DNA of 64,000 nucleotides from contig CM126223.1 in assembly GCA_052327205.1 (NCBI GenBank), forward strand, positions 58,838,001-58,902,000, written 5' to 3'. Below, one piece after another: positions 3,521 through 64,000 of the stretch. A program made the translations under genes and the position numbers. The first letter of the stretch is position 1. The number at the start of each line of letters is the position of its first letter. The DNA comes from Somniosus microcephalus (taxonomy: Eukaryota). The notes under the pieces were generated by a model. That model searched no databases and was not told where the DNA came from. It saw nothing but the letters and a program-made list of their open reading frames with translations.

Positions 3521-3914
3521 TATGTTTTTTTTTAACCACTTAATTTATGACTTGTGTACTGGAATAAAGAGTATCTCAACAAGTGGGTGTGACCAGTTAA
3601 TTACCTGACTGCATAATTGTTTTCAAATATAAATCTTTGCACTTCAATTTAACCCAGAAAAGGGAAAGAGGTGCCAACTGTTGCACTTGGGATATTTCCC
3701 ATATATTGATGGTATGCTGTTCATTAGTACAATGTATTTTACCTTCTAAAATTAATACTGAGATATTCAAGTAACGTCAATCAGTTTTGCATTTTCAGTG
3801 CTGTTTTTGATCACAATTTATCCCAGAATGAGTGTTTCTTATGGGGTTTTTAATGGTACTTTCATCTTTGTCACCTTTTTTCCCTTGCGTATTTGCATCT
3901 TTTTCATTGTGGTA

Positions 3915-4228
3915 CAGGAAACTTTCTGGTATCCGGCACGGACGGGACCGACCTGGTGCCGGTTCATCAATTCCAGATAACCGAACGCTATAGTAAAACA
4001 TACGGAGCTCAGAGCTCCGTATAAAGCAACAAACCCTGTTGAACTTCAGAACAATCGGCACAAGTTGCAAGTGTCTCTGTAGCTTAGCAACAGCTGCAAC
4101 CACACCCTTGCACAGCAACAAATGGAGTTTAAAAAAAAGTAATAAAAGTCATCTGAACCGACTCCTGAATTTTGCCGGTGGATAGAACGTTCCGGTTATT
4201 TAGGGGTCAGTTAATCGAAAGTTTCCTG
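3915..4228. mobile_element. Tigger/pogo-like MITE (Tc1-mariner superfamily), copy A
   Basis: TA|CAGGAAACTTTC...GAAAGTTTCCTG|TA: perfect 12-bp TIR, TA target duplication, repeated subterminal CCGG motifs. Confidence 0.85.
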
Positions 4229-5392
4229 TATTTGGCTTCCCACTATGTCTACAAACTAAATGTGAAGTTCATCTATCTTCAGATACCCTAGTATTTACAT
4301 TTCCAAGCAGTTAAATTGAAAAGTCTTAAATAGAACTCAGCCTGTCTCCTACAAAATGTAAGATCTTTCTCCGTCCAATGTGTCTGCAGAGGCATTGCTG
4401 AGTAGTTTCACAGATTGCTGTGGATTTTAAGCTTGGCAAAAGACTAGCATTGGGTGATGTAATTTCAATAAGAAAAAGGGAGGGGTATGGAAAAATGGGA
4501 GTGTAACCTGATTGGCTCATGTTGGGCTTACTGAGACAGATGCTTTCACTTGAGGCAGACACTGGCTCACAGTTCAGTAAGATTACCATTTGTTGTACTT
4601 GTTCTGTGGTTTTCTGATTTTTAAATTGAGATTGACAGAGACTACTGGTGTTTTACACAAGTAAAGGTTCCTATCCTCAACAACACAAACTTTCACTTGG
4701 AATCAAAAGACAGATCATGCTAACATACTGTTCTCTTCTCTTCCACTCCACTGTGTTTCCCCCCCACCGCACAACATAACCCACAAAATATGCTCAGCAG
4801 CTTGTAAAAGATTCCTCTTCGCATTCGTTGCTCAAGATTGGCCAACTATAATTAGATATGATAGAGTAAATCGGAGTGGATGAGTTCAGCCTCATGTGGT
4901 TGTATACAAGTATTGTGGTAAATTGCTGCTTTAAGTAGCCAGTGAAGACTGTTTTGCCGTTCAACTGACATGTAATTTTGTATCGATTTTCCCCGATGAT
5001 GCCAACTTTTGCACATCCTCCAGCCAGAAAGGCAGAGTGTGCTTTTAGGAATCACATTGCAAGATGGGTGAGCGTTAAAGTGTTTTCTCCTTTGCAAGAC
5101 GACATGCCTTCTCTGTGCTATCCAGTGACTCCGTTCATTGTTTCCTGTTGTCAGCCAATCCTGCTATCCATTGAGCTAGGGTTTTCCATTGACCATCCAC
5201 CAGTGTGCATTAACATCACTTATTGTAAAATATTTGAAATACATATTTGGCTAACTTGAAACCTTATCCAAATACAGGTTTGAAAATTATTTCAATTGCT
5301 GATTAATGCCTAAACATCTTTTATAATAGCCAAATACCATAATGGTCATATTTTTAAATGAGAATTAAATTTACTGTCATTTTTGGAACAAT

Positions 5393-6169
5393 GGCCCAGA
5401 ACTTGGTGTCGGGGGCTTGCCGCGTGTGCAAGCCCCCGATCTGCACTCACCCTGCGCGCTGACATCTGAAGCCCGGGCCTGCTTGCATTTCCTGTGACAG
5501 GCCCGGTTCAGATGTTAGCGCGCAGTGCTTACCTGACCCAGCGGCGTAGTTAGTGCGATGTGCCGGCTGGGATCAGGTGAGCACTGTACAAACAATCAGG
5601 GGAGGGGAAGGTTCATTCATGAGTTTGAGAGTAAAGACTGTCAAACTCATGAAAACTACGGGGGCCCAAAACACTATTTAAACTTGAAATAAAAATTTGA
5701 AAAACACCCCAATCATTAAATTAAGTATAAATAAGTTTTTTTTTTAAATAATTTAAACAATTTTTTTTTTTTTTGAAAAAAATAAATTTTTAATAAAAAG
5801 GGTCTAAAACTAAACTTACCTTATTGTAGATTCTTTAAAATAATAAACCTGTGGAATTTTTTTTTCTAAATTACACTAAAACACCACTTACCTGTAAAAA
5901 AAAAAAAAAAAATACTTACGTGTGTTTTTTTACAAGCGTAAAGACCGGAGGCCTTTACACATGCGCAAATCCCCCAAAACAGAGGAAATCCAAGACGCAC
6001 GCGCTGCCCCCTACAGCGCACGTGCTAGCCTCTTCACCTCTTGGGTTAAAGGAGAGGAAATGCCGGTTTTCAGCGCATGCGCTGTGCATGCTGAAAACCG
6101 GCATTTCCTCCGGCCAGACGCGTGAGTACCCCTTCCGTACTCACGCGTTTGGGGAGGAATTTCTGCCCC
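5393..6169. mobile_element. Multi-hairpin non-autonomous DNA element (PIF/Harbinger-like), copy 1
   Basis: aat|GGCCCAGAACTT...AATTTCTGCCCC|agt imperfect TIR; CpG-rich hairpin arms around an A/T-tract core; homologous in reverse orientation to 29756-30469. Confidence 0.7.
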
Positions 6170-7479
6170 AGTGTCTTGGCTTATGTAGAAAATGGTTTCT
6201 TAAATGTAAAGTCCTTTTTTAGATAAGGCTACTTTAATTCTGCTCCTATTTTTACCATTTTGCTTAAAGCCATAATCTACCAGCACTGTAAACCTTCCCT
6301 GAGTTAGTATTTAGAACATTAAAATATCCTTTTAAAATATAATTTCTTCATCCCTTTGTGAAGATTTGCACAGACCACTCGCCAACTGTGTACATGGACA
6401 ACTTGCTCATAAGCCTCTGCCAGTTCTGCTCTAGATGGGTACAGGCAAATCTATGAGCGCACCTGGGTGATGATTTGTGTTCAGATTTTCCCCTAGTGGA
6501 GAGCATTAAAATTTAACCTAATAGTTGTGGTTTGATCCATAAATAAAGAGACAGAATCTCAAAAAAAAAAATTGGGTAGTTTACTGAATATAATTCAATT
6601 TTTCAATCCCAAACTGTGGGTCAAGTATCTCTCAGATTTGTAGTAATGCAAGAGCTTTTTTGCAAAATAGATTAAACTATCGTTTCAATTTCTGTATTTC
6701 CAAGACACACAATTTAGGCAACATTTCAAACATAAGTGAAAGTATCAACTCAAATGTTGAAAGAAACTCTTGCCGATGGTGCTCTGGGTTTAATGTTTAT
6801 ATCTCATGTTGATTCTTTTCCCTGGGACTGTGGCTTCTGGCTAAAGCTCGACTTATATTCAGTCTTCACAAATTTCACGTCTTGTTTTGAACTAGCTTGC
6901 AGGCCTGCTGCATCTTGTGAATTCTGATGACATGGAAGCAAATCTCATGGTCCATGATGAGAGGTCTGGGAAAATGTGCTTTTAGGTGCGGGGTGGGGTT
7001 TGTTTATGTATCCGTTGTAAGCCCCATCATGCTAGAAATCTGAAGCACTTTCATTTGTAAATGATGGTTTAAAGTGGTCTTGATTTGCAGCAAAAACTTT
7101 TCAGAAGGTTTAGCCTGAGCTACATAGAGAACTTTGATTTTTGCCTACAGCGAATCACTAATGTGTGAATCTCGTATTGTTTTTAAGTAAAAGGCTGCAT
7201 GTATCTCAATGTAATACCTAGTTGGTGAAATTAATTTGGGAACTTGTCTGTTTGGCTCAGGATAATAGTCGCTCCTGCAGATTACAGATAGACCAGCGTT
7301 TAAATTTAACATTGGGGTGTTCTGTGTTGCCTTTCAATAATTTTTTTGTTTTAGGTAAATATTTTTCTCTCCATGTAATTTCATCCTTGCAAAATGATCG
7401 TGAGTTTGTACCAAGTGAAATCACTACTCTGCTAATTTTGGATCAACTCTAGGGCTGTTAACATATAAGTATATATACA

Positions 7480-8435: not shown

Positions 8436-8536
8436 ACAAGCAAAACAGAAAATGTTGAAAATACTCATCAGGTCAGGCAGCATCTGTGGAGAGAGAAACA
8501 GAATTAACGTTTCAGGTCGATGACCCTTCGTCAGCT
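8436..8536 (-). mobile_element. Penelope-like element terminal fragment with hammerhead core
   Basis: Homologous to 13590-13690; minus strand reads CTGACGA-A-GGGTC-ATC-GACCT-GAAA-CGTT. Confidence 0.75.
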
Positions 8537-9042: not shown

Positions 9043-9243
9043 TAAGTTAAAAAGGCTTACGGGATCCTGGGTTTCATGAATAGAGGTATAGAGTACAAAA
9101 GTGTAGAAATTATAATGAACCTGTATAAAACACTGGTTTAGCCCCAACTGGAGCACTGTGTCCAATTCTGGGCACCACACTTCAGGAAGGATGTGAAGAC
9201 CTTGGAGAAGGTGCAAAAAAGATTTACGAGAATGATTCCAGGA
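9043..9243 (+). mobile_element. CR1 LINE ORF2 C-terminal fragment (copy A of a local duplication)
   Basis: Degenerate KAYGILGF.NRGIEYKS...LYKTLV.PQLEHCVQFWAPHFRKDV. Confidence 0.85.
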
Positions 9244-10024
9244 ACCACGCCCGAAGCACAGATGCAATTTTGCGTCAATTGGCCTTGTTAAGCCCGCATT
9301 GCGGGCTTGCCAGCCAATTAAGAGAAAGTCAGTGTCAGATGACATTAGTTGATGACGCATTATCTGCTGGTTTTCTTAAAGGGGACACGCTCATTTTTGT
9401 TTGACATGATTTTTCAGTGTTTGACAGCATTGAGGTGCTGCAAACACTGCCAGTCACTGTACAAAGGTGAGCCCTTGCACCCAGGCTCTCCAGTGACACA
9501 CTGCTTAGGATAAAACAGATGGCAGCTGCAGGTGAGGTTACAGAAGCGATCTGTCACTGGTGAGAGAGGTTCTCCCAATGAGCTGGGACTACACAAACAC
9601 TTCAAACCTTGTCACCTACAGAAAAGTCTAAATACATTAAAAATTATTTTCCCAGCATTTCCTTTCCTCTGAAACTCACACCACTTCTGCAGCTGTCATC
9701 AAAGAAGAAACATTACAGTAGACTCACAACATGCCACACTTGCCTGGCATGGTGTCCGGACGTCGGAAAGTCTGCAGTGGACCTGGCAAAATTGGAAAAA
9801 GCTTCTTAACTGCCTGTTAACTACCTGTTAACAAGCAGTTAAGTGGCTATAATCCTCTTCCCGCCGCTAGGAGTCGGATCTCTGCGCAAATCGGGGACCC
9901 AACTCCCGGGAAGATTGATTGGAGGCGGGTTGGATGTGCGTTCGGGGCCCGCTGCCAATCTTTTTGATTTTGCCAGCAGTCCCGCCTCCCAACCCGCCCC
10001 CTGAGCGCCGGCAAAATCAAGCCC
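9244..10024. mobile_element. Left-truncated hairpin-rich DNA element ending GCAAAATCAAGCCC
   Basis: Internal stems (aagcccgca/tgcgggctt; ttaactgcctgttaac/gttaacaagcagttaa; TTGATTTTGCC/GGCAAAATCAA); sharp junction with CR1 at 10025. Confidence 0.6.
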
Positions 10025-11555: not shown

Positions 11556-13649
11556 GGCGAGAGAGAGAACCCATAATGTACAGGATCTGCAGCCAGTTAG
11601 TTTACAAGTAGTGTTGATGACTTCTGAAATCGGTTTCATTTTCCACAGGGTGATACGATATAGGTTCTGCATAAAATTAAGATAGTTTTAAACTGTGCTG
11701 CTCTTGAAATTTTATGTCATTTTCAGTTCAGTATAGAATGTCAACCTGGAGATTAGACCACTCTAGTATGATTTTTTTTTTAAACAGTGAATTTACTACT
11801 CTTAATTTAAAAAGAGAGTTTGCATATGTAGAATCTAATTTCACACATGCATACCTGCAAATACAGGATAGCTGGAAAATTCCATTTGTAAATTGAAGGT
11901 ATGATTTTCTGGATCTTCGAAAAATACAGTTGCATGAGTAATGAGCTCTCTGCATGGAGTTCTACCATTGCAGCACAAACGCCCACACTTGTAATATAGT
12001 GGCACCCATAAAGCTTCCACCTATGCAGATTCTCAACTGGAGTGCCAATTTTAGATCACTTGCTCCTGAATGAAATGCTTAGAACAGTTATGATTTCCCC
12101 CCCCCACCTGCTCATATGTTCTTAAGCACAAATATAGGGATACACGTTAAGTCAGAAGTTTTAGAAGAACAGGAGTGTTACATGGATACTGACTTATCAG
12201 CATTCAAGGTGCCCTGGCAGTGCTAGGAAGAGGGAGTCTCGGGGTCTGGGAACTTTTAACCCTGCGAGCGTCTCCAAGAACTCTGGAGGGCGAGGTACCA
12301 GGAATACTGGGGCAGATGCTGGGATTGCTGAGAGGAGAATCCTGTGACCTAGCAGGTTTAAGAGGGAGGTCTTGAGACCCATCAGCAGTGGCAGTGGTTA
12401 TGGGACTAGTGAGCACTGGGAATGCGGTCTCGAGTTTGTGAGCATTGAGGAGAGTGTTGCAGGGTCTGGTGGAGGTAGGAGGACGTCTGAGGAGCGAGAT
12501 CACGAGGTACATCAGGGCTCGGGGTGGGATTTTGGAGCATTGGCTATTGTTGGAACCTGGTAATATTGGGCAGAGCAAGGTGTCACATTCTTGTGAGGGA
12601 TGGGTCCCAGGAGAATTGGGCCTAAATGGCCTTTTGTCTCATTCAAGCTATCGGAACCCCATTCCCACATATTCCTGCATGTCCGCTACTCCCCACCACC
12701 ACTTTCCCCATAGTCATCAGGTTCCTGTCTTTGCTCGTGCCATCAAGCATTTAAGTGCAAGTTTGCTGCTTGATAAAATCGTGGGCTGGGGTTGCACGAT
12801 TTCCTGATTATTAGGTAGTTTGCAAAATTATATCATCTGTAATAAAAATTCCGTAATGAAACTAATCAAAGCACAAAGTTCATTTATGCAGTTTCCAAGT
12901 TTTTGTATTAAAAATTGTTCGTTTTTTTTTGAATATATACAACAAAGAGCAATGATTGACTAAAAAAGTTCTCTAGAAATTATCTGTTTTCTTTGCTAAC
13001 CATCAACAGAAAAAATGACAAACAACTTGGTTTTGCTGTCTCTGAAGAGCTATTTGTTTTCATGTGTTGCTTTTGTTTTTCTTTGAGGAGTTCATAATAG
13101 AAAAGCACAATTGTAATAATAAGTTATCACTTGCCTCAAATAAAGGCTTTGAGAATTCAATCTCTCGTTTCTTTTAAAGTCTTTTGAAAAAAGCAAAGAA
13201 ATCAAATCCTCACAGGATTAGGGGAAAACGCCCGTCTTCCCTTCCAACTCTCCTGTTGTACAGATTGCAGGCGGGAAAATTCTGAAAAGCACACATGCTT
13301 AGAATGGACAGTGATGATTGAAAACGCTCAACTGTTGGGAAACGTCTGATGAACTTTAATCAAGACATTTATAGACACAAAATACTATTCAGTGGGAAAT
13401 GTAGTAATGATATTCTGAAACAGTTTTTTAAAAATGTATTTTACAACCTTATTTTGAATATTGGAAATTTCTCTTACTGTGAAGAAAATTTTCAGAAAGC
13501 ATTTTGAGTGATTTATGGGAGCCAGGTGGCCAGATTGCCCAATCTTAAGATAATATACAAAAGCAAAGTACTGCAGATGCTGAAAATCTGAAATAAAAAT
13601 AGAAAATGCTGAAAATACTCAGCAGGTCAGGCAGCATCTGTGGAGAACT

Positions 13650-13688
13650 AGTTAACGTTTCAGGTCGATGACCTTTCATCAGAACTGG
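13650..13688 (-). ncRNA. Minimal type I hammerhead ribozyme motif (PLE-associated), intact core
   Basis: Minus strand: cc-AGTT-CTGATGA-A-AGGTC-ATC-GACCT-GAA-ACGT-T-AACT; stem I AGTT/AACT; palindromic ACGT helix III. Confidence 0.7.
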
Positions 13689-14869
13689 AAAAAGTTAGAC
13701 ATGTAACAGGTTTTAAGCAAGTACAGAGGAGAGGCAGGGAAAGGGGGGAGGGGGAGAAAGAACAAAAAGGAAGGTCTGTGATTGGGTGGAAAGCGGGAGC
13801 GATTAAATGACCAAAGGGTTGATGGTAATGGGACAAGTCAAGAAACAAAAGATGAGTCTAGAGGAGGTGTAAATAGCAAGAGCAGAATCATTACCAACAG
13901 CTGCTGTCCGAAAAAATGGGAGCGGTGGTTATGATCTGAAACTGTTGGACTCAATATTGAGTCCGGAAGGGCTGTGCCCATCCCATTTCTTGCACTTCTG
14001 CTCTCACCCCTACCCCTTCCTCCCAGAACCACAATAGGGTTGTTACCCATGTCCTCGCGTTCCACCCCACCAACCTCCATATTCAACAGATCATCCTCCG
14101 CTATTTGCACCACCTCCAGCGTAATGCCACCACCAAACACATCTTCCCCTCCCCTTTCAGCATTCTGAAGGAACCGTTCCCTCCGCGATGCCCTGGTCCA
14201 CTCTGAAATCACCCCCTCCCCTTCCCACGGCACCTTCCTGTGCAAGCGCAGGAGATTCAACACCTACCCTTTTACCTCCTCCCTTCCCACCGTCCAGGAC
14301 CCCAAACACTCCTTCCAGGTGAAACAGCGATTTACTTGTACTTCTTGCAATTTAATATACTGTATTCGCCACTCACGATGCGGTCTCCTCTACATTGGGT
14401 GACCGCTTTGCAGAACACCTCCGTTCAGCCGGTAAGGGTGACACTGAGCTTGTCATTTTAATTCTCCACCCCACTCCCACTCTGACCTCTTTGTCCTCGG
14501 CCTCCTGCACTGTTCTAATGAAGCTCAATGGAAACTCGAGAAACAGCACCTCATCTTCGACTAGGCACTTTACAGCCTTCCGGACCTGACATTGAGTTCA
14601 ACAATTTCAGATCAGAACCACCGCTCCCATTTTTTTGTACAGTAGCAGTTGGTAATGATTTTGCTATTGCCATTTACACCTCTTCTAGACCCATCTTTTA
14701 TTTCTTTACTTGTCCCATTACCATCTCCTTTTGCCTTGCACCATCACCCCTTTTATCATTTAATCTCTTCTGTCTTCCTCCCTATCACAGACCTTTCCTT
14801 TTGTTATTCCTGCTCCCCCTTTCCCTGTGCCTGGACTTGCTTAAAATCTGTTAGATCTCTTAGCTCGTT

Positions 14870-14908
14870 CCAGTTCTGATGAAAGGTCATCAACCTGAAA
14901 TGTTAACT
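14870..14908 (+). ncRNA. Minimal hammerhead motif, degenerate (ACGT changed to ATGT)
   Basis: ccagtt-CTGATGA-A-AGGTCATCAACCT-GAAA-TGTT-AACT. Confidence 0.55.
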
Positions 14909-15628
14909 TTGTTTTTCTCCACAGATGCTGCCTGACCTGTTGAGTATTTCCAGCATTTTCTGTTTTTATTTAAGATCGCATACTCTAACTATAAAATAGC
15001 AACCACCATGTGGCACAGAATGTTAACATTGAAAATATCTGTCACCGCAGCACACGCACAAGTTAACTCTTGAATTTTCAATTAATTGTTTGCCCCAAAT
15101 GTCAAATGGTTTATTTAAATATAATATATACACACATATAGTATAACTCACGGTAAGCCAGAGCATACACTTGAGTGTGACACGATTTTTAAATATTACT
15201 AGCCATTTCCTGAGTCATTGCTCATGGTGTGTGAAGGATGCACTGAGGTGTGACGGGAAGGGAATGTGACATTTTAGAGAACATGCGCACTATTATATTC
15301 TATGTCTAGTGACTGCGTACATATTCTGCCCACATTACACTTCCTGTGTCACCCTTTTTCAATACTGCTTCTGTCAACTTTTTATAAGGGGAAAAGATGT
15401 ATGTAAATGTTTTGCATGTCACGCTGTGTAGATGCACGCTTCCAATCACGAGATGGCTCTATTGAATCTCCTGTTCCTGTTGGCCTCTGAACAATAACTG
15501 AGGTTCCGAGAAATATTCTTTAATAGTCATTCTACAAAAATATCACTTTTTTTCTTTTGGCATGAATAAACCTGCTAAGTAGGAGATGGTTAATTTGTGC
15601 TTTTTAAAGATTAGACTTTGTTTTTCAG

Positions 15629-15967: not shown

Positions 15968-18900
15968 TTTGAGAGTCATAACAGCACAGAAGGAGGCCAT
16001 TCAGCCCATCGAGTCCGTGCCGGCTTTCTGTAGAGCAATCCAGTCAGTCCCATTCCCCTGCTCTATCCCCGTAGCCCTGCAAGTTTATTTCCCTCAAGTG
16101 CCTATCCAATCTCCCCTTGAAAACATTGAGTGTCTCCGCTTCCACCACTTCCGTCGGCAGCGAGTTCCAGGTCCTCACTGCGTTAAAAAAAGTTTTTCCT
16201 CACATCCCCCCTGTATCTCTTGCCCAAAACCTTAAATCTGTGTCCCCTAGTCCTTGTACCATCAACTAGTGGGTACAGCCTTTCCCTGTCTAGCCTATCC
16301 AAACCCGTCATAATCTTGTACACCTCTATCAAATCACCCCTCAACCTCCTTTGCTCTAATGAAAACAAATCCCACTTCTCCAACCTGTCCTTGTAGCTAA
16401 GATCCCCCATCCCCGGAACCATTCTGGTAAATCTCCTCTGCACCCTCAAGGACCTTCACATCCTTCTTAAAATGTGGTGACCAGAACTCGACGCAATACT
16501 CCAGTTGTGGCCTAACCAGTGCGTTATAAAGATTCAGCATAACTTCTCTACTTTTGTACTCAATACCTCTATTTATGAAGCCCAAGATCCCATATGCTTT
16601 GCTAACCACTCTCTCAATATGTCCTGCCACCTTCAGGGACCTATGCACATTAACTCCCAGGTCCCTCTGTCCCTGTACTCTTTAAAACTGTGCCATTAAG
16701 TGTATATTGCCTCTCCCTGTTCCTTCTGCCAAAATGCATCACCTCACACTTCTCTGTATTAAATTCCATCTGCCACTTGTCTGCCCATTCTGCTAGCCTT
16801 TCTATATCCTGTTGCGGTCGATTGGTATCATCATCACTGTTTGCCACACCCCCAACTTGGGTATTATCGGCAAATTTAGAAATTCTACTCTGTATTCCAA
16901 TATCCAGGTCATTTATATCGATATATTTTTAAAAAAAGCAGTGGCCCCAGCACTGACCCTTGGGGAACACCACTGTCTAGTCTGAAAAACAGCCATTTAC
17001 CACAACTTGCTTTTTTCTGTCCTTAAGCCAATTCCTTATCCAAGCTGCCACTGACCCACCTATTCCATGAGCCTCAATTTTGGTAATCAGTCTTCTATGT
17101 GGTACTTTGCCAAACGCCTTCCTAAAATCCATGTAGACAACATCCATTGCATTCCCTTCATCGATCCTCCCTGTTACTTCATCAAAAAATTCAATTCGAT
17201 TAGTCAAACATGATCTACCTTTTACAAATCCGTGTTGGCTGTCCTTAATTAGCTTAAACCTCTCCAAGTGCCTGTTCATTTTTTCTTTGATTATTGTTTC
17301 TAAAACTTTACCCACCACTAACGTTAAACTGACCAGCCTGTTCCTAGAATTGTCCTTACACCCTTTCTTGAACAATGGTGTCACATTTGCCACTTTCCAA
17401 TCCTCAGGCACCTCCCCCACATCTAGGGAAGATTGGAAAATTAAAGCAAGCCCTTCCGCTATCACCTCCCCCAATTCCCTTAGCAATCTGGGATGCAAGC
17501 CATCTGGACCAGTCGACTTATACACTCTAAGCATACCCAGCCTTTCTCGTACATCCTGTCTTATCAATTTTCACCCCTACCATTGCTTCTACCTTTTCCA
17601 CTGCTACCGATATTTAGTCAGCATCCACCTCCTTAGTAAACACTGATGCAAAGTACTCATCGAGTATTCTAGCCTTGCCCTGCGCCTCTAAGCATATAAC
17701 ACTTCCCTTGTAGTAAGATTTTTGGGTTCCCTTTTATGTTAACTGCCATTCTCCTCTCATATTCTCTCTTTACTTCCCCTCTCAACTTATTGTATTTGGT
17801 CTGGTTCTCCCTTGAAGAATTCACCTGACATGCATCATACACCCTATTTTTTTTGTTAATCATCTTCTCTATCTCCCTCATCATCCAAGGGGCCCTTGCT
17901 CTGGTTCCCCTTACCTCTTGTTGGAATGTACCTAGCCTGTACTTGGAACATCTCCTCCTTAAAGATCTCCCATTGTTCCGTTACAGTTTTTCCTGTCAGT
18001 CTTTGGTTCCATTTTACTCTGGCTAGATCCTTTTGCATCCCATTGAAGTTAGCCGTATTCCAGTTTAGAAGTTCCACTCTAGATTGTTCCTTGCTCCTCT
18101 CCATTGCTAATCTAAATCTTATGATACGATGATCACTCGTACCCAAGTGTTTTCCCACAGACACTTGGTCGACCTGGCCCACCTCATTCCCCAGCACCAG
18201 ATCCAGCAAAATGCCTCCTTTCTAGTTGGGCCAAGAACATACTGGTCAAGGAAATTCTCTTGAACACATTTCAGAAATTCCTCCCCTTCCTTTCCCTTTA
18301 CCCTAGCATTATCCCAATCGATATTTGGGTGATTTACGTCCCCCAATATCACCACACTATAGCTCTTGCATATCTCTGCAATTTCCCTGCAGATTTGCTC
18401 CTCTACCTCCCCCTCACTATTTGGAGGCCTGTAGAATACCCCCAATAGCGTGATCATACCCTTTTTTGCTCCTCAATTCTAACCAAATGGATTCTGTCTT
18501 TGTCCCCTCAAGAACATCCTCCCTTTCCAACACTACAATGTCTTCCTTAGTCAGCACTGCCACCCACCTCCCTTTTTTCCTTCCCTATCTTTTCTGAACA
18601 CCTTGTATCCTTGAATATTAAGTGCCCAGTCCTCACCGTTTTTTTAGCCACGTTTCCGTTATTGCCACAACATCATATTGCCACATGGCTAACTGTGCTT
18701 GTAGCTCACCAACCTAATTCACCACATTTTGTGCGTTTACGTACATGCATTCTAAACCCATTTTTGAATTTTTCTTAGTCTGCTCCTATCTAATATGGTA
18801 CTATTTCCGCCTCCAGTACTACTTTCTTCAGTACTATGCAACACACTCAATCTTTTATGCACCTTATTCCTCTTTTCTACTCCTATATGCTGGTGCCCAT

Positions 18901-20050
18901 CCCCCTGCCAAGCTAGTTTAAACCCTCCCCAACAGCACTAGCAAACCTCCCCGCGAGAATATTGGTCCCGGCTCATTTGAGGTGTAACCCGTCCGGCTTG
19001 TACAGGTCCCACCTTCCCCAGAAACGGCCCCAATGCCTCAGGAATCTAAAGCCCTCCTGCACCGTCTCTCCAGCCACACATTCATCTGTTCTATCCTCCT
19101 ATTGCTGTACTCACTAGCACGTGGCACCGGGAGTAATCCGGAGATTATTACCTTTTTGAGGTCCTGCTTTTTAATCTCTCTCCTAGATCCCTAAACTCTG
19201 CCTGCAGGACCTCATCCCTCCTTCTGCCTATGCCGTTGATACCGATATGGATAACGACCTCTGGTTGTTCACCCTCCCCCCTCAGTGTGTCCTGCAGCCG
19301 CTCAGTGACATCCTTGACCTTGGCACCAGGGAGGTAACATACCATCCTGGAGTCACATCTGCGGCCGCAGAAATGCCTGCCTGCTCCCCTAATTATCGAA
19401 TCTCCTACCACTATTGCTCTTCCACTCTTTTTCCTCCCCCTCGTGCAACTGAGCCACCAGTGGTGCCTAGGACTTGTCTCTAGCTGCACTCCCCGGTGGA
19501 CCTGGCGTCCCCACCAGTACTCAACAGAGTACTGGTTGGAGAGCGAGATGCACTCTGGCTGGTCCTCTTCTGCCTGGCAGTCACCCATTCCCTCTCTGCC
19601 TGCATACTCTTAAGCTGCGGAGTGACCACCTCCAGAAATGTACTATCCACCTAACTCTCAGCCTCGCGGATGCACCGCAGGGACTCCAGCTGCCACTCAA
19701 GCTCTGAAACACAGATTTCGAGCTGCCGTAGCTGGTGACACTTCCTGCACATGTGGTCATCCAGGACATTGCATATGGCACAGGATGTGCACTCCATGTG
19801 ACTGAACTGCCCTGCCATGCCTCTATTTAATAGACTAAGAACTAACTAAGCAGAAATAAACTTAAATCTTAAAAAAAAACTCACCAGCTACTCACCAATC
19901 GACTCCTTCCCTTGTGCTGCCGTCACTTTTCCTACTCTGACGTCACTCTTTCAGATTCTGCCTCTGTTAAGCCGCTGTGTCTTTCGCTCTGATCCTGCTC
20001 TGGTCTCGAGGTCTGCTGCCTCCACTTCCTCTCGCGCTCTTTACAACGCC
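15968..20050 (-). mobile_element. Near full-length degenerate CR1 LINE (ORF1 zinc-finger/leucine zipper plus SGNH esterase; ORF2 APE endonuclease and RT)
   Basis: ORF 19148..19588 AIVVGDSIIRG...CYLPGAKVKDV (esterase); 18119..18457 GVFYRPP..ILGDVNHP (endonuclease); 16977..17567 GPDGLHPRLL..QHGFVKGRSCLTN..YMDFRKAF (RT); tail at about 15970; many frameshifts. Confidence 0.93.
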
Positions 20051-20242
20051 GCTGAGAGGAACAAACAAAATTATCCTGGAGATGGCACACACTTTTGCCA
20101 TCATGATAGTGCATCGGATTTGGGCTATTCCATTATCAAAAATATATGAACAGACTACGAATACAAAAAAAGTAGGTAACTAACTTCAAATCCCCTTCTG
20201 TCCTGTCACAATTGTGGGGGTTGAAAGCAGAAATGTGAAACG

Positions 20243-21485
20243 CAACAACAACTTGTATTTATATTGCGCCTTTAACGTAGTAAAACGTCCCAAGGCGTAC
20301 ATGTGGAAACTGACGCTGTGATTTCGGATGATGTCGCCAAGGAGCAACATGTAGATGAGAAATAGGAGGGGGGCCAAGGATAGATCCTTGGGGGACACCA
20401 AAGGTCACGATGCGGGAGCGGGAAGAGAAGCCTTTGCAGGTGATTCTCTGGCTACGATTAGATAGATAAAAATGGAACCAGGCGTATGCTGTCCCACCCA
20501 GCTGGGCGACGGTGGAGAGGCGTTGGAGAAGGATGGAGTGGTCAGCCATGGCAAAGGTTGCAGACAAGTCGAGAAGGACGAGGAGAGATAGTTTACCTTT
20601 GTTACAGTCACAAAGGATGTCATTTGTGACTTTGATGAGAGCCGTTTTGGTACTGTGGCATGGGCAGACACCTGATTGGAGGAATTCAAACATGGAATTG
20701 CGGGAAAGATGGAAACAGATTTGGAAGGTGACAACACATTCAAGGACTTTGGAGAGGAAAGGGAGGTTGGAGATGGGGTGGTAGTTTGCAAGGATGGAGT
20801 GGTCAAGGGTTATTTCTTTGAGGAGAGGGGTGATGACGGCAGATTTGAGGGAGAGGGGGACAGTACCTGAGGAGAGAGAACTGTTAATATCAGCTAACAT
20901 GGGAGCCAGAAAAGGAAGTTTGGTGGTCAGCAGTTTGGTGGGAATAGGGTCGAGGGAGCAGGAGGTGGGTCTCAGACAAGATGAGTGTGGAGAGGTCATG
21001 AGGGGAGATCGGAGAGAAACTGGAGAAAGAGGTGAATTCAGGCCTAGGACAAGGGGAACCTTGTAGGAAGTTTGGCCCGGTGGGTATGGGGAAGGAAGGG
21101 AAGTGGCAGAGGCAGCTGAACGGATGGTCTCAATCTTAGAGACAAAAAAGTCCATGAGCTCCTCATAATTGTTATCGGAGGTGAGGGTGGAGGAGACAGG
21201 GGAGAGGGGTTTAAGAAGACGGTTAGCAATCGAGAATAGGAGCCAGGGTTTATCTTTGCATTCCAGAATGATTCTGGAATAGTGAGCAATTTTGGCAGAC
21301 GAGAGCAGGACCCGATAATGCTTTGTGGTCCAGCCAGATCTGGCAATGAATGGCTAAACCAGTTGTCCATTATATCCGTTCAAGTCTGCATCCCTTGGAC
21401 TTAAGGGAGTGAAGATGAGGGCCGTGCCAGGGGGAATGGCCAGGGTGAGAGAGAGTAATTGTTTTAGTAAGGACTAGGGCATCAA
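20243..21485 (-). mobile_element. L2-clade LINE RT fragment joined directly to its 3' tail
   Basis: ORF 20259..21155 SCSLDPIPTKLL..NYHPISNLPFLSKVLE..HSTKTALIKVTNDIL..LLDLSATF..GVPQGSILGP; tail ggcgcaatataaatacaagttgttgttg. Confidence 0.9.
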
Positions 21486-21659
21486 AGGTGGTGGTGAGGG
21501 TGTGGTTGAGCAGTTAAACAATTATTTTTGGCTGCTGCCAGCACCTGCATGCCTCCAACAGCCTGCTTGGTTGCCCCCTTAAGCTGCCCAAGGAGGCATA
21601 GAACCTTGATGTACTGCTCAATCGTGCTCGCATCCTCCCCTGCACCTGCTCCATTACTA

Positions 21660-22940
21660 CATAAGAACATAAGAAGTAGGAGCAGGAGTAGGCCATACGG
21701 CCCCTCAGGCCTGCTCCGCCATTCAATAGAATCATGGCTGATCCGAACCTAGACTCGCGTCCACTTCCCTGCCCGCTCCCCGTAACCCCTATTCCCTTAT
21801 CAGCTAGGAAACTGTCTATCTCTGTTTTAAATTTATTTAATGTCGCAGCTTCCACAGCTCTCTGAGGTAGCAAATTCCATAGATTTACTACCCTCTGAGT
21901 GAAGAAGTTTCTCCTCATCTCAGTTTTGAAAGGGCAGCCCCTTATTCTAAGATTATGCCCCTAGTTCTAGTCTCACCCATCAGTGGAAACATCCTCCCCG
22001 CATCCACCCGATCAAGCCCCCTCACAATCTTATATGTTTCGATAAGATCGCCTCTCATTCTTCTGAATTCCAATGAGTAGAGGCCCAACCTACTCAACCT
22101 TTCCTCATAAGTCAACCCCCTCAACTCCAGAATCAACCGAGTGAACCTTCTCTGAACTGTCTCGAGAGCAAGTATATCTTTTCTTAAATATGGAAACCAA
22201 AACTGTACGCAGTATTCCAGATGTGGCCTCACCAGTACCCTGTATAACTGAAGCAAGACTTCCCTGCTTTTATACTCCATCCCCCTTGCAATAAAAGCCA
22301 AGATTCCATTGGCCTTCCTGATCTCCTGCTGTACCTGCATACTAACCTTCTGTGTTTCATGCACCAGGACCCCCAGATCCCTTTGTACTGTAGCACTTTG
22401 CAGTTTCTTTCCATTTAGATAATAACTTGCTCTTTGATTTTTTTCTGCCAAAGTACATAACCTCACACTTTCCAACATTATATTCCATCTGCCAAATTTC
22501 TGCCCACTCACTTAGCCTGTCTATGTTCTTTTGCAGGTTTTTTATGTCCTCCTCACTCACTGCTTTCCCTCCCATCTTTATCGTCAACAAACTTGGATAC
22601 GTTGCACTTGGTCCCCTCCTCCAAATCGTTAATATAGATTGTAAAGAGTTGGGGTCCCAGCACTGACCCCTGCGGAACACCACTAGTTACTGATTGCCAA
22701 CCGGAGAATGAACCATTTATCCCAACTTTCTGTTAGATAGCCAATCTTCCACCCATGCCAGTATATTACCCCCAATCCCGTGATTTTTTATCTTGTGCAG
22801 TAATCTTTTGTGTGGCACCTTGTCAAATGCCTTTTGGAAGTCCAAATACACCACATCCACTGGTTCCCCATTATCCACCCTGCTTGTTACGTCCTCAAAG
22901 AATTCAAGCAAATTTGTCAAGCATGATTTCCCCTTCATAT
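21660..22940 (-). mobile_element. 5'-truncated CR1 LINE (RT C-terminal half and tail)
   Basis: ORFs 22717..22938 (KSCLTNLLEFF..YLDFQKAFDKVPH) and 21942..22511; (ttcttatg)n tail. Confidence 0.93.
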
Positions 22941-22959
22941 ACCTGGGGTTTCTTTTTTT

Positions 22960-23510
22960 CTATCTCCCTGTTGTCTGTGTCTGCCCCTACCCTTCCCCCA
23001 TCACCACCAAAACCTTGGTCCATACCTTCAACATATTGAGGCTTGACTTCTCCAACTTTTTCCTATCTTAACCTTCCACAAGTTCACATCTCATTCAAAG
23101 CGCCTCAACCACATAGAAACCTGCATACTCATCATCTGCATCCTTTCCAAGCTACATTGGTTCCCTGTGCCCCAGTGACTTTAGTGCAAAACTCTCGTCC
23201 TCACTTTCAAATCCCTGCCTTATGGCTTTACCCCACGTGACCGTGATGATCTTCGCCAGCCTTGCATCTCCGCATTTCCTCTTCCACTCCTGTAATACCA
23301 GGCGGCTGCTTTTTCCTCTGCTTCACCATTGATGGTTGCTTTAAACCTCTCTGCAGTTTTCCTCTGGGTCTTATGCTTAGTTCACGATCCCCTGCCTTCA
23401 AAACCTCTTGGAAAAACTGTACTTTCAGTCCCTCAATCAACACCATCCATTTTTATTCCTTGCTCCTTTAATATAAGGCATCGATGAGGACTGCTATGAA
23501 AATGCAAGTG
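22960..23510 (+). mobile_element. Highly degenerate L2 3' fragment
   Basis: aaaccttggtccatacctt..ggcttgacttctccaac..ctacattggttccctg..ccttcaaaacctcttggaaaa..gctatgaaaatgcaagt. Confidence 0.55.
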
Positions 23511-24449
23511 TGAATTGGCTGCTGCAACCGCTAACCTTTTCTGATAGAAAGGAAACATCACAAATAAGATGGGCTGGTATAAAGAGCATCTGTTCAGACT
23601 GCATGGAGTCTAACTGGGACTTTCTACAGAGTTTGCATTAGAAATTCAATGAAACAAAAGGAGAAAATGAGTTGCGTTGTTTTTTACCTTGCATTTTTGT
23701 GCCTTAATGCATGTGAAATCAGTGTGTAATACAATAAGTTCACCCTTTTCCGAACAAGGCATAAAGCCTTCATCTGATCTTTACAGACAGCCTGATATGA
23801 CAAAATTGGCATGTTCTGCCATCGCCCAAGAGACTTGGATCTGAATCGCAGACACAACTGATATTTGTACTTGAGTCTCCCCAGATGATCTTTGCAGCGT
23901 GACAGCATAAACCAAAGCCAACATGCCTAGTCAAGTGAAAAATAAAATTGTCTGGGGCTCTGTTGTGGGTCATTCTTTTACAATCTCTACCTGGTATCTG
24001 TTGAACAGCATTGGAAATAGATATGCAAACTCCAGGCATAGCTTCTCAGCGGAGGGTGCACAGCCTACATGCTCAAAAGGAAAAGATTATTAACACCAAC
24101 TGTCCTAGGGGTTGGGAGTGGAGGAATGTTTTTGCCTGCTATTTGAAACCTTTTAATACTGCCATTGAGAATTTTCCTTGGTTTGTGATCTAGCCACATT
24201 CAAGTTATCGGTAACTGGAACAAGTTTTGTTGAAGTTTATCTAATTAGAGTGCCAAGCTGTTCATCCTCTCCAACTAGGCAGCTACACACTTATCCATGG
24301 CCTTTGCTGATATTCAGCATACAGGTGCAAGAGAAAGTAAAACCATTTTATGTAACGCCAACTTTTCAAATCTCACACACTGAATTCTTCTACATTTCTG
24401 CAACAAAAAAAAAGTTTCTAATATATTTTGTTTATACTTTTTAAATATT

Positions 24450-24782
24450 TGTTTGAGATGTGGGCGTCACTGGCAGGGCTGGCATTTATTGCCCATCCCT
24501 AGTTGCCCTTGAGATGGTGGTGGTGAGCCGACTTCTTGAACTGCTGCAGTCAGTGTGGTGAAAACTTTTCCTAGCAGTTTGCTAGGCCATTTCAGAGAGC
24601 CATTAAGAGTTAACCACATTGCTGTGGATCTGCAGTCACATATAGGCCAGACCAGGTAAGGGCGGCAGATTTCCTTCCCTAAAGGACATTAGTGAACCAG
24701 ATAGGTTTCTACGACAATCCGGTCACCATTACTGGTACCAGCTTTTTATTCCAAATTTTATTTAACTGAATTCCACAGCTGC
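24450..24782 (-). mobile_element. Shark SINE/LINE-tail composite fragment
   Basis: gcatttattgcccatccctagttgcccttgag...ccttccctaaaggacattagtgaaccag; recognised as a common elasmobranch repeat; family name uncertain. Confidence 0.6.
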
Positions 24783-24784
24783 AC

Positions 24785-25666
24785 ATGATGACACAAAGCT
24801 GGGTGGGCGTGTGTGCTGTGAGGAGGATGCTGAGAAACTCCAGTATGATTTGGACAGGTTGGGCGATATGACAGATGCAGTATAATGTGGATAAATGTGA
24901 GGTTATCCACTTTGGTGGCAAAAACAGGAAGGCAGATTATTATCTGAACGGCAATAGATTGGGAGAAGGGGAAGTGCAACGAGACCTGGGTGTCCTTGTG
25001 CACCAGTCGCTGAAGGTAAGCATGCAGGTGCAGCAGGCGGTTAAGAAGGCAAATGGTATGTTGGCCTTCATAGCGAGAGGATTCGAGTACAGGAACAAGG
25101 ATGTGTTGCTGCAGTTGTACAGGGCCTTGGTGAGACCACACCTTGAGCATTGTGTGCAGTTTTGGTCGCCTTATCTGAGGAAGGATGTTCTTGCCATGGA
25201 GGGAGTGCAGCGAAGATTCACCAGACTGATACCTGGGATGGCAGGAATGACGTATGAGGAGAGATTGGGTCGATTGGGCTTATACTCGCTGGAGTTTAGA
25301 AGAATGAGAGGGGATCTCATTGAAACATATAAAATCCTAACAGGACTAGACAAACTAGATGCAGGAAGGATGTTCCCGATGGCGGGGGAGTCCAGAACCA
25401 GGGGTCACAGTCTAAGGATAAGGGGTAAGCCATTTAGGACAGATGAGGAGGAATTTCTTCACCCAGAGAGTGGTGAACCTGTGGAATTCTCTACCACAGA
25501 AGGCAGTTGAGGCCAATTCATTAAATATATTCAAAAAGTAGTTAGATATATTTCTTAAGGCTAAAGGGATATGGGGAGAAGGCAGGGACAGGGTACTGAA
25601 TTTGGATGATCAGCCATGATGTCATTGAATGGTGGAGTAGGCGCGAGGGGCCGAATGGCCTACTCC
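24785..25666 (+). mobile_element. 5'-truncated CR1 LINE
   Basis: ORF 24875..25510 QYNVDKCEVIHFG..RDLGVLV..LYRALVRPHLEHCVQFWSP..RRMRGDLIETYK. Confidence 0.93.
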
Positions 25667-27490
25667 CACAGTGCTGTTAGGGAGGGAATTCCAGGATTTT
25701 GACCCAGCGACAATGAAGGATCGGCGATATACTTCTAAGTCTGGATGGTGTGTGACTTGGAGGGGAACTTGGAGGTAGTGGTGTTCCCATGCGCCTGCTG
25801 CCCTTGTCCTTCTAGGCAGTAGAGGTCACGGGTTTGGGAGATACTGTCGAGGAAGCCTTGGCGAGTTGCTGCAGTGTATCTTGTAGATGGTACACACTGC
25901 AGCCACGGTACGCCGGTGGTGGAGGGAGTGAATGTTTAAGCTGGTGGATGGGGTGCCAATCAAGCGGGCTGCTTTGTCCTGGATGGTGTCTAGTTTCTTG
26001 AGTGTTGTTGCAGCTGCACTCATCCAGGCAAGTGGAGAGTATTCCATCACACTCCTTACTTGTGCATTGTAGATGGTGAAAAGGCTTTGGGGAGTCAGGA
26101 GGTGAGACACTCGCCGCAGAATACCCAGCCTCTGACCTGCTCTTGTTGCCGCAGTATTTATGTGGCTGGCCCAGTTAAGTTTCTGGTCAATGGTGACCCC
26201 CAGGATGTTGATGCTGGGGGATTCGGTGATGGTAATGTCGTTGAATGTCAAGGGGAGGTGGTTAGACTCTCGCTTGTTGATAGTCATTGCCTGGCACTTC
26301 TGTGGCGCGAATGTTACCTGCCACTTATCAGCCCAAGCCTGAACGTCGTCCAGGTCTTGTTGCATGCGGGCATGGACTGCTTCATTATCTGAGGAGTTGT
26401 GAATGGCACTGAACACTGTGCAGTCATCAGCGAACATCCCCATTTCTGACCTTATGTTGGAGGCAAGGTCATTGATGAAGCAGCTGAAGATGGTTGGGCC
26501 TAGGACACTGCCCTGAGGAAGTCCTGCAGCGATGTCCTGGGGCTGCGATGATTGACCTTCAATCACCACAACCATCTTCTTTGTGCTAGGTATGACTCGA
26601 GAGTTTTCCCCCCCCGATTCCCATTGACTTGAGTTTTACTAGGGCTCCTTGATGCCACACTAGGTCAAATGCTGCCTTGATGTCAAGGGCAGTCACTCAC
26701 CTCACCTCTGGAATTCAGCTCCTTTGTCCATGTTTGGACCAAGGCTGTAATGAGGTCGGGAGCCGAGTGGTCTTGGCGGAACCCAAACTGGGCATCAGTG
26801 AGCAGGTGCTGCTTGATAGCACTGTCGGTGACACCTTCCATCACTTTGCTGATGATTGAGAGTAGACTGAATGGGCGGTAATTGGCTGGATTGGCTTTGT
26901 CCTGCTTTTTGTGGACAGGACACACCTGGGCAGTTTTCCACATTGTCAGATGCCAGGGTTGTAGCTGTACTGGAACAGCTTGGCTAGAGGCGCAGCTAGT
27001 TCTGGAGCACAAGTCTTCAGCGCGATAGCCGGGATATTGTCGGGGCCCATAGTTTTTGCTGTATCCAGTGCGCTCAGCCGTTTCTTTATATCACGTGGAG
27101 TGAATCGAATTGGCTGAAGACTGGCTTCTGTGATCATGGGGCCACAGGAGTAGGCCGATATGGATCGTCCACTTGGTACTTGTGGCTGAAGATGGTTGCA
27201 AACACTTCGGCCTTGTCTTTTGCACTCGCGTGCTGGGCTCCACAATCATTGAGGATGGGGATATTCATGGAGCCTCCTCCTCCCATTAGTTGTTTAATGG
27301 TCCACCACCATTCACGACTGGATGTGGCAGGATGCAGAGCTTTGATCTGATCCGTTGATTGTGGGATCACTTAGCCCTGTCTATGGCATGCTGCTTCCAC
27401 TTTTTAGCATGCATGTAGTCCTGTGTTGCAGCTTCCCCAGGTTGGCACCTCGTTTTTAGGTACGCCTGGTGCTGCTCTTGGCATGCTCGG
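25661..27490 (-). mobile_element. CR1-group LINE of a second family, RT region
   Basis: ORFs 25826..26575 ([24 protein letters not shown]), 26683..27012 (NYRPFSLLSIISKVME..QFGFRQDHSAPD), 26946..27245 (GPDNIP). Confidence 0.9.
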
Positions 27491-28512: not shown

Positions 28513-28587
28513 AATGAAGAATTAGACAAGAAATATGCTGGACTGCTGGAGAAAAAATGGACCTCTGTGATAAGACTACAGAAGAAG
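28513..28587 (+). CDS. PAFAH1B1: LIS1 coding exon 4 (NEELDKKYAGLLEKKWTSVIRLQKK, coiled coil)
   Basis: tctctag|AATGAAGAA...AAGAAG|gtgagg; 75 nt; phase 0 at both ends. Confidence 0.96.
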
Positions 28588-29755
28588 GTGAGGTTCTAAT
28601 GTAATATGTTAGGCACTTGTCAGAAGAAATGACCATCAGGCCCATATGCATTTGCCTCATGTTCTGCTGGCCTCATCTCCATGTACATACCCTTCATCCC
28701 CAACTCATGGGAGAGGCAAAGAAAAGCCTCAAAAGTCAATACAGGAATCCAAAATTCCTCTCGCCCTTAAAGGCGATCAAGCAAACCCTAGGAGGCCCGA
28801 AACCTGTTAATTTTTCAAAAATGCATTTAGCACCACCTTAAGAACTGCGACCTCTTGAATCTGATTCCATATGTCCAACACCCTCTGAGAAAATCTAAAC
28901 TATTCCAGAAGGCAGCAAATCAAAATTCAGCATTCCTGAAATGGCATCGAGTAAAATGAGGGTTTTGCTTGAATAGATCTTCAGCTCCATGTTTTTTTTT
29001 CACAAACGAATTTCACTTTTATTTACGAACAGAGAATTCCTTTTAAAATCAAAGTCCTTGGGTTTATAGGTATGTCTCAAGAATTTGAGTCGAGGACTCC
29101 CTATCTGCTTGCAGTTGTCTTTGTTGACTGCAGTCTTTTTTTTAAAGAGATGTGGTGTCACCTTTACAATCCAGAAGCAGAAAGAAAATGCTTAGTCAAG
29201 TGTGGTGTTCAGTTTCATTTGCAGGGGGGGAAGGGGGGGGATGAACAATGGAAGAGACTGACTTAGTTTGCTTGAATTCTACGTTCTGCCAGATCATGGA
29301 GTAGCTTTTGTGGTTTTCTGCAACCCATAATCTCAGCTTAAAGCAGACACATGATGGAAAGCAGCTTGTAAGGTGTGAAGAAAAGCAGTACATCATTTCT
29401 TTCATCTCTCATTCCACAGTCTCCTTGGGAATAAGTAGGAATATCCAGTTGCAGAACTAAACCGTGGTCTTAATTTGGTGCCTAAATTAAATTTCTCTCG
29501 CAAGGAAACTGTTCTGCAGCATCTCATGGTTTAAGTGAATATGGTTTGATTTCTATTAGGCTTTCTTTGCTTTTGGTGATTCTTTCCATCCCCCAAAGGA
29601 AATTGCAAACGTTTAGAAAGCTTTCGTGTTCAGTAGATTTCTGTAGAACTCTTAAATGTCTTGAAAATGCAGGAAAATTCTCACTCAAAAGCAACTTAGT
29701 CTTTAAAAGAAAAATTAACTCCTTTAGTTTTTTTTCTCACAATTACAAAATAACT

Positions 29756-30469
29756 GGCCTGTATTTTCCGATGCCTACGGGTGTGTGCACGCTGTGTACA
29801 CACTCGTAGGAACATCTGAAATGCCGGTTTCAGGCATGTGCTGAAAACCGGCATTTTCGATCTGTCCAGAATCCTGTTGACCGATCGGACGCCTGCCCTG
29901 GAGAAGGGCCTCTGCGGGCGGAGAGTTCTGCTTTCCTCCGCCCGCTGAAATCACTTAAAAATTTTAAACGCCTGGTAAAAACAGGCGCAAGTCCTGCTTT
30001 TACCAGCATAAGAGTTTTAAAAAAAAAATGAATTTTCATTCATTTATAATTTTAAAAAGGTACGTTTATTTTTAGCCTCATAAAAAACTTTAATTTTTTT
30101 CAAAAAATTTAATTTTTGTTTAAAATATTTTATTTAATGTAATATTACCTCATTTTAAAAACATGATGGTTTTTAAAAAATTTACGTAATGTTTTAGTGT
30201 CTTTTTTTCAGTGATCCCCATTCATACTTTTGACAGGTCTATCTGTCAAAGGTATGAAGGAGGATTCCCTTCTTTCATTGACTCGCCTGGCCCACGTGAT
30301 CCCAGGGACGCTTGCAAACTGCCTGGGCTACGTGGGCCCTGCGCATTTCGACTGGAGAGGCCCAGGAGCGGAAATGGCCAGACCTCTGGAGCCCTCCGGT
30401 AAGGGCGTAGATTTTTTCCCGATAGGAGGCATCTGCACGCAGGAAGCCTACTGTCGGAAATTACGGGCC
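29756..30469. mobile_element. Multi-hairpin non-autonomous DNA element (PIF/Harbinger-like), copy 2
   Basis: act|GGCCTGTATTTTCCGA...TCGGAAATTACGGGCC|att (14/16 TIR match); same hairpin series as 5393-6169 in reverse order. Confidence 0.75.
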
Positions 30470-30757: not shown

Positions 30758-31048
<291 letters not shown>

Positions 31049-34035: not shown

Positions 34036-34043
34036 TCACCGGC

Positions 34044-63930: not shown

Positions 63931-64000
63931 ACTATTGTTCTTTTAATATTTCCTTTTGGCTTGGTATAATTTTTTTGTCATTATGCTTCTCTGAAGTGCC

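Follow-up and report, generated by a model that had tools for sequence, protein, structure and literature searches.

Two short elements in the window, the 64,000-nucleotide stretch of DNA analysed here, contain the same ordered series of hairpin stems in different sequence. They raise the question of what has kept the arms of these stems complementary while the letters changed. A preliminary description read the stems as maintained for a DNA or RNA fold and named gene conversion between arms as the alternative.

Two homologous elements and their stems

The two elements and their principal parts are as follows.

5393 to 6169, homologous orientation on the minus strand: copy 1, a 777-bp non-coding element with terminal inverted repeats (TIRs)
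5393 to 5404: TIR at one end of copy 1, 9 of 12 bases matching the opposite end
6158 to 6169: TIR at the other end of copy 1
5658 to 5890, minus strand: A/T core of copy 1, not folded, 65% identical to the core of copy 2, including a splice-donor-like AAGGTA(A/C)GT (5814-5822; 30057 in copy 2)
29756 to 30469, plus strand: copy 2, a 714-bp homologous element with a 16-bp TIR containing two mismatches, flanked by ACT and ATT

Both copies start with GG, end with CC and carry imperfect TIRs (9/12 matching bases in copy 1, 14/16 in copy 2). Both are short and non-coding: their reading frames are stop-ridden, and the long frames that overlap them have no Pfam match. The observed/expected ratio of CpG is 0.91 in copy 1 and 0.93 in copy 2, against 0.36 in the window, and 8% and 15% of their stem pairs, respectively, are mismatched. 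Together, the retained CpG and the level of stem mismatches suggest modest decay since insertion. Because the ends are inverted and there is no ORF family, we consider it very probable that both copies are miniature non-autonomous TIR DNA transposons (MITEs) and fossil insertions.

The minus strand of copy 1 aligns collinearly with 29756-30469 (z = 12.2 relative to block shuffles; 2.8 for the opposite orientation), as expected from the earlier claim that copy 2 has the same ordered stems in reverse. The left arm (z = 6.5), core (z = 4.5) and right arm (z = 8.1) are each significant against 50-nt block shuffles. Copies 1 and 2 share common descent. The left arm does not stand out clearly as an inverted copy of its right counterpart (z = 1.1-2.6). 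The stems are listed by their position in copy 1.

5407 to 5441: H10, 12 perfect pairs; homolog 30420-30456; three double-changed Watson-Crick pairs
5452 to 5525: H9, paired over 19+9 positions, bulged on the 3' side, with conserved GGAAATG in its loop; homolog 30339-30412, decayed and poorly aligned
5524 to 5585: H8, with a 1-nt bulge common to both copies; homolog 30289-30338
5616 to 5653: H7, around TTTGACAG-N6-CTGTCAAA, with three adjacent pairs changed as a block; homolog 30214-30265
5891 to 6026: H6, H5 and H4, weaker stems; homologs 29972-30006, 29914-29945 and 29895-29909
6053 to 6111: H2, 21 perfect pairs, nearly invariant in sequence between copies; homolog 29814-29861
6114 to 6152: H1, 12 perfect pairs; homolog 29774-29810

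All seven stems previously described for copy 1 are present in the sequence on re-check, with the claimed number of perfect pairs at 5409-5439 (12), 6054-6110 (21) and 6118-6148 (12). The stem at 5616-5653 has 13 perfect pairs; the outer pairs number 9 at 5452-5525 (19+9, one mismatch) and 7 at 5523-5586 (13+6). The stem placed at about 5890-5935 exists as 10 bp at 5893-5934, but it is nearly all A/T and the weakest of the seven.

When compared with dinucleotide shuffles, the predicted folds of copy 1 (z = -24.6) and copy 2 (z = -10.4) were better than all 20 shuffles of each. The arms, which are rich in GC, account for this signal (z = -6.9 to -11.8). Folding of the A/T cores is no better than that of shuffles (z = 0.6 in copy 1 and -1.0 in copy 2), and no 10-bp A-tract phasing is common to the two cores.

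Neither nhmmer nor blastn detected a third copy within the 64-kb window, and a covariance model of H7 found none there (next best E = 0.18). A scan of GTDB with the H2 arms returned two bacterial hairpins, which showed no extension and were set aside as chance matches. At the apex of H2 (6075-6097 and 29829-29845), copy 1 has a short duplication and copy 2 has a deletion and CpG decay; a perfect palindrome without a loop seems to have given rise to this apex.

Concerted change in the stem arms

Copies 1 and 2 are 55% identical when aligned with MAFFT and 69% identical with a gap-tolerant pairwise aligner. Within the MAFFT alignment, identity is 58% in stems (185/319 columns), 65% in the core (123/189) and 42% elsewhere. 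In hand-chosen pairs, Watson-Crick pairing is retained at 131 of 143 (92%) in copy 1 and 122 of 143 (85%) in copy 2. The claim that structure is conserved better than sequence is therefore correct for the arms, but the unfolded A/T core is conserved equally or better. Both of the stem examples given in support of that claim were recovered in the alignment; the first had been quoted with copy 1 on its non-homologous strand, which leaves the example unaffected.

To quantify covariation, stems were called in each copy with a strand-neutral finder and mapped through sequence-only alignments. Stems with less than 30% GC or a loop of at least 30 nt were dropped, leaving 6 of 9 in copy 1 and 7 of 10 in copy 2. 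Using the copy 1 stems and MAFFT, the 99 ungapped pairs (15 gapped pairs were left out) comprised 57 unchanged pairs, 20 with one-sided changes, 13 with double Watson-Crick changes, 4 changed to G.T and 5 mismatches. The other three combinations of stems and alignment yielded 12, 14 and 14 double Watson-Crick changes. A null of independent drift, matched for unchanged pairs, averaged 3.3-5.4 double changes, peaking at 8-11, over 150 runs, with 44-47 one-sided changes. Maxima rose to 16-20 in a null with higher divergence and strong transition bias, in which unchanged pairs fell far below those observed.

The observed 12-14 double changes, compared with 3.3-5.4 under drift, indicate that the arms have not drifted independently. 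The compensatory changes noted in the preliminary description thus reflect arms that change in concert, with 12-14 Watson-Crick double changes where independent drift gives 3-5. Against a frozen-plus-saturated null, the excess in these two sequences is marginal (p = 0.03-0.67 over four alignments, reaching 0.006-0.03 only when the poorly aligned H9 was dropped post hoc). The order of the stems, the 1-nt bulge and the positions of the loops are common to both copies. Taken together with the concerted evolution of the arms, these features make a constraint on symmetry likely.

If the constraint acts on a folded molecule, an RNA is one candidate, and the preliminary description had proposed a structured non-coding RNA carried as cargo. 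The same element strand folds 9-14 kcal/mol better as RNA in both copies, and a GNRA-like loop, C-G(T/C)AA-G, occurs at a similar position in each. However, Rfam returned no match at gathering score in the 64 kb, and no wobble pair is common to both copies in the hand-set helix stems. G.T and A.C mismatches, which the preliminary description had proposed to compare, showed no strand asymmetry in the corrected hand-set helices (element strand 11:10, host strand 10:11, isolated mismatches 7:6); this count has low power, the mismatches are mostly post-insertion decay, and H9 of copy 2 is imperfectly registered in the helix set. An apparent excess of G.T on the host strand (12:4 in automatically called stems) vanished after stems in the A/T core were removed and registers were corrected.

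The compensation itself is transversion-rich: transversions make up 11 of 18 double-changed pairs, a share equal to that found where columns are unpaired (177:109). Among instantaneous compensations in rRNA, 61% are reported to be of the type passable through G-U (PMC8794818); we set this figure beside ours as an illustration, not as a statistical comparison. We therefore regard an RNA cargo as very improbable in view of the missing Rfam match, the lack of wobble asymmetry and the transversion-rich compensation. On balance, the symmetry of the two copies appears to be a property of DNA. Compensatory changes are commonly read as proof of a functional RNA, and these elements provide a warning case in which such changes occur without an RNA signature.

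A DNA fold is the next candidate. The copies may be MITEs of the same kind whose stems were selected as extruded folds (cruciforms or single-stranded hairpins) that aid excision, gap-repair copying or replication-linked amplification. About nine stems persist in order across 42-45% divergence, compensations occur at variable positions outside the motifs described below, and bulges in H8 and H9 are common to both copies. Strand neutrality would be expected of a cruciform, and a stem-loop model has been published for Angel elements (PMC5172404). However, the frozen-plus-saturated null leaves only a marginal excess (p = 0.03-0.67), and conservation of the unfolded core equals that of the stems. 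We consider selection on extruded folds possible but rather unlikely; it is the main rival to the explanation that we prefer below, with which it can coexist.

Alternatively, the stems may be functionless quasi-palindromes whose pairing was restored in founder lineages by template switching, a process that can both form new stems and mend existing ones (PMC8794818). As in the copies described here, it produces one-step and multi-base compensations in perfect stems. The almost pure Watson-Crick stems, the changes in H7 and H2 that affect three neighbouring pairs as a block, the transversion-rich compensation and the frequent folding among several repeat families in the window all agree with such a process. 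Stem maintenance by template switching was demonstrated for RNA genes under selection (PMC8794818), and none of the five loops compared in the two copies is inverted. In addition, arm copying would have to match point mutation over about 45% divergence. The 1-nt bulge of H8 is present in each copy and has compensations to its left and right, which argues against free arm copying. A purely mutational origin is thus unlikely. The arm-to-arm copying that the preliminary description offered as its alternative fits much of the data, but as the sole process it is opposed by the retained H8 bulge and the uninverted loops (0/5), and a simpler, double-stranded source of covariation, repeats of a TIR-core motif in alternating orientation, had not been considered.

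Terminal motifs, flanks and mobilisation

The motif sites and the flanks of copy 1 are located as follows.

6053 to 6160, minus strand: three copies of the TIR-core motif in copy 1 (6153-6160, 6104-6111 inverted, and 6053-6060), with more at 5981-5988 and 5488-5495
29765 to 30460, alternating orientation: six TTTCCGAT-like sites in copy 2 (29765, 29814, 29854, 30367, 30416 and 30453)
5390 to 5392, plus strand: flank triplet AAT, whose partner AGT differs at the middle base
6170 to 6172, plus strand: flank triplet AGT, which is ACT when read into the element

The sites in copy 2, allowing at most one mismatch, lie 10, 59 and 99 nt from one end and 96, 47 and 10 nt from the other. The TTTCCGAT-like TIR-core 8-mer of copy 2 does not occur in copy 1. 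At the left end, the three sites (TIR; 5' arm of H2, inverted; 3' arm of H2) continue after a common core as TCC/TCC/TCT in copy 1 and GAT/GAT/GAT in copy 2, and the outer triplet of H2 covaries with that of the TIR. Because the first and third of these sites are direct repeats, no single hairpin joins them. Their joint change is compatible with a binding site that recurs, with a pair of alternative folds or with serial copying.

We assessed the motif by taking the best of 26 terminal 8-mers, scored on its interior count. Of 150 shuffles, 2 reached the interior count of 4 seen in copy 2, as did 10 of 150 controls that keep the hairpins. The count in copy 1 was not significant (23/150 shuffles and 52/150 hairpin-keeping controls), and the best repeated 8-mer in an unanchored search was not above controls. 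One site, which keeps the motif core, is situated within an unpaired loop, and the right end of copy 1 lacks two of the six sites. The motif covers only the outer parts of H1, H2 and H10; most pairs of H1, H7, H8 and H9 are other sequence. These results are suggestive of family-specific repeats of the TIR-core motif as the source of part of the stem covariation, and of the sites as putative subterminal sites for a family-specific protein. Subterminal sites for the Myb-like partner of Harbinger appear in second-hand descriptions (PMC13668399 and PMC4055405).

Our preferred explanation, to which we give about an even chance of being right, is that the stems persist through a combination of inverted protein sites, arm-to-arm copying and selection for mobility. 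The copies would have been moved in trans by a DDE transposase and a Myb/SANT-type DNA-binding partner. The element ends may represent arrays of inverted putative binding sites, with the TIR-core motif three times per end and invariant dyads such as H2 and H7, and neighbouring inverted sites would form stems automatically. In founder lineages, template switching could have transferred a change in one arm to its partner, as could repair directed by the hairpin, and symmetric variants would have been kept by selection for mobility acting on the element. The symmetry would then be read mainly in double-stranded DNA, with the present mismatches arising as decay after insertion.

We searched the window for a mobiliser by scanning 88 of its 94 frames of at least 90 aa against Pfam (the six frames left out are mostly overlapping or the known exon). 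The only matches were to LINE reverse transcriptase or endonuclease and to WD40; no DDE, HUH or recombinase match was found, and these frames include no DDE_Tnp_4 transposase or Myb/SANT ORF.

The flanks have an unusual arrangement. In the common orientation, ACT precedes and ATT follows both copies, so that the triplets of each copy differ by one mismatch at the same position. The element at 62647-62820 is flanked by ACT and ATA. Thus all three elements with clear ends have the form ACT|element|AT(T/A), and none of the three has an identical target-site duplication; 41657-41791, whose ends are ambiguous and decayed, was left out of this count. The single end at 10024 has TCT, compared with TAT in a duplicate of the surrounding LINE.

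Such flanks could point to a single-stranded HUH-type or tyrosine-recombinase element, with enzyme-recognised hairpins and the ACT and AT flanks as an oriented, unduplicated target. Replitrons, Helitrons and IS200/IS605 elements have subterminal hairpins and oriented, unduplicated targets, features general for Rep transposons (PMC10288648), and copies 1 and 2 have subterminal hairpins at both ends as well as oriented, non-duplicated flanks in 3/3 clear elements. However, HUH elements lack symmetric TIRs, Replitrons carry direct terminal repeats and Helitrons insert between AT or TT (PMC10288648), whereas the ends of copies 1 and 2 are true terminal inverted repeats. No HUH or recombinase frame was present among the 88 of 94 long frames of the window. 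We therefore find this mechanism, which the preliminary description had suggested, highly doubtful.

The copies most likely belong to two sister families of MITEs that were mobilised in trans and have PHIS/Harbinger-like ends. The PHIS groups have GG-starting TIRs of similar length and 2-3-bp targets (PMC4482050). Copies 1 and 2 resemble the Tourist-like MITEs of this superfamily (PIF/Harbinger, Pangu, NuwaI/II and ISL2EU) in their short GG-starting TIRs, A/T-rich centre, lack of coding capacity, intronic site and A..T-bounded flank triplets similar to the Pangu ANT (PMC4482050). They differ in having about nine internal stems and unequal flank triplets that deviate identically in both copies, and in lacking a TWA, CWG or CTNAG target.

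The ACT/ATT flanks are not the TWA duplication of PIF/Harbinger sensu stricto, nor the CWG or C|TNA|G target of NuwaI/II. For ISL2EU (A|AT|T, with flanks AAT and ATT), ATT fits but the other flank is ACT in both copies. For Pangu, the TIRs (11-40 bp, starting with AG or GG) and ANT at each flank fit, but the middle base differs in 2/2 copies; no vertebrate is listed among its hosts (PMC4482050). The PHIS-related Spy elements share GG-starting TIRs and the absence of a target duplication with copies 1 and 2, but they insert in AAA|TTT and are reported from invertebrates (PMC4122938). The joined flanks here are ACT and AT(T/A), and the copies have neither the AAA|TTT target nor the GGANNNNG ends of Spy. 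The copies behave like Tourist-type MITEs, and we place them in no PHIS group because their flanks depart from the targets of each group or, for Pangu, because the middle base differs.

The flank pairs could be decayed, Pangu-like ANT duplications, but to deviate identically in every case would be improbable if decay amounts to a few percent (a post hoc estimate). Tourist-like elements are thought to cut inside the duplication (PMC4561436), and, by analogy, a cut within the duplication that carries a donor base along would be one speculative source of the asymmetry. Another, equally speculative, is that the true ends extend one or two bases further. Should the asymmetry hold genome-wide, it would point to a cleavage or target chemistry absent from the lists for the six PHIS groups. 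It is improbable, in our estimation, that the copies belong to a novel vertebrate TIR lineage in which insertion is oriented without true duplication, extruded hairpins are needed for mobilisation or amplification, and the fold is inherited over sequence.

The preliminary description had assumed that MITEs need no internal conservation. This premise is too strong, since MITE subfamilies alike in structure, predicted folds and conserved interiors have been published (PMC5172404 and PMC2872659). Subfamilies of teleost Angel and plant MITEs resemble each other in structure rather than in sequence, as here, and are palindromic with an A-rich centre (PMC5172404). Angel is described as one stem-loop, whereas copies 1 and 2 have many local stems, compensations and short TIRs. 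Coral CMITEs likewise have interiors that are better conserved between families than their TIRs, but they are piggyBac-related, and internal stems are unmentioned in the available text (PMC2872659). The available text of PMC5753468 does not mention hairpins. In a literature search that did not extend to subscription titles, Repbase Reports, Dfam or the supplements of bioRxiv preprints, we found no description of this multi-stem architecture in a vertebrate MITE or of the flank asymmetry.

Replication-linked amplification has been proposed for folding MITEs of the Angel and plant types, and a review treats the route of MITEs to high copy number and the relevance of predicted folds as unresolved (PMC5172404). 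The relevance of MITE folds would become testable with a set of families that have diverged to saturation and share about nine homologous stems. If none of the readings given here holds, the elements are an ordinary repeat family, possibly already in Repbase or Dfam.

Genomic setting and other repeats in the window

Both copies lie near exons of one host gene, of which one exon was identified by similarity.

30782 to 30990, plus strand: host exon encoding LIS1/PAFAH1B1 residues 65-134 (E = 1.2e-47), outside the element

Two further upstream exons, which we place near 15630 and 28516 (28516-28590) from motifs that we take to be those of the gene, complete the setting. Copy 2 is intronic, between the exons near 28516-28590 and at 30782-30990, on the sense strand. 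Copy 1 is upstream of the exon near 15630 in the opposite orientation and is probably intronic as well.

Perfect splice-donor-like motifs occur at 5814-5822 and 5886-5894 (minus strand) and at 30057-30065 (plus strand). The sequence AGGTAAGT occurs twice in the window, both times in copy 1, and copy 2 retains one of these on the sense strand of the host. The splice-donor-like motifs are possibly the relic of an intron of the parent element.

Hairpin richness is common to several DNA-type repeats in the window, at a weaker level than in copies 1 and 2. Four of eight other DNA-type segments fold (z = -3.1 to -6.5), compared with none of seven LINE or unique segments (z = -1.5 to 0.2). Three parts of the truncated element at 9245-10024 had fold z values of -5.5, -1.2 and -6.2; in a TA-flanked family of three copies, one folds (z = -6.5) and the remaining two had -2.1 and +1.1; and the values for a short palindromic element and its relative were -3.1 and -2.1.

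The truncated element at 9245-10024 has one Harbinger-like end and lies between two copies of a LINE segment of about 155 bp (9090-9244 and from 10027 on) that are 92% identical; it looks like the product of recombination between filled and empty alleles or of gap repair. A TTTGACAG hairpin at 9415-9449 resembles H7, and the element as a whole has no significant similarity to copies 1 and 2. A decayed Myb-like frame was suspected in it, but eight short frames had no Pfam match, and there was no Atlas match.

The elements at 62647-62820 and 41657-41791 are a pair of short MITE-like palindromes whose ends are of the GG...CC type. The TA-flanked family (3914-4229, 34040-34381 and 51540-52047), which we take to be Tc1/pogo-like, has CAGGAAAC-type inverted ends and a common internal hairpin; in its member at 51540-52047, a 36-bp unit forms a perfect tandem array (about 51826-52042). 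A cluster at 15972-27090 comprises decayed LINE fragments of either orientation, with reverse transcriptase and endonuclease Pfam matches. A further repeat family with inverted sub-repeats is found at 8442-8534, 13557-13975, 14572-14976 and 63759-63938, the last of which includes a 140-bp near-palindrome (63759-63898). Finally, an imperfect palindrome of 78 bp stands alone at 745-822, with a stem of the TTCATGAA type.
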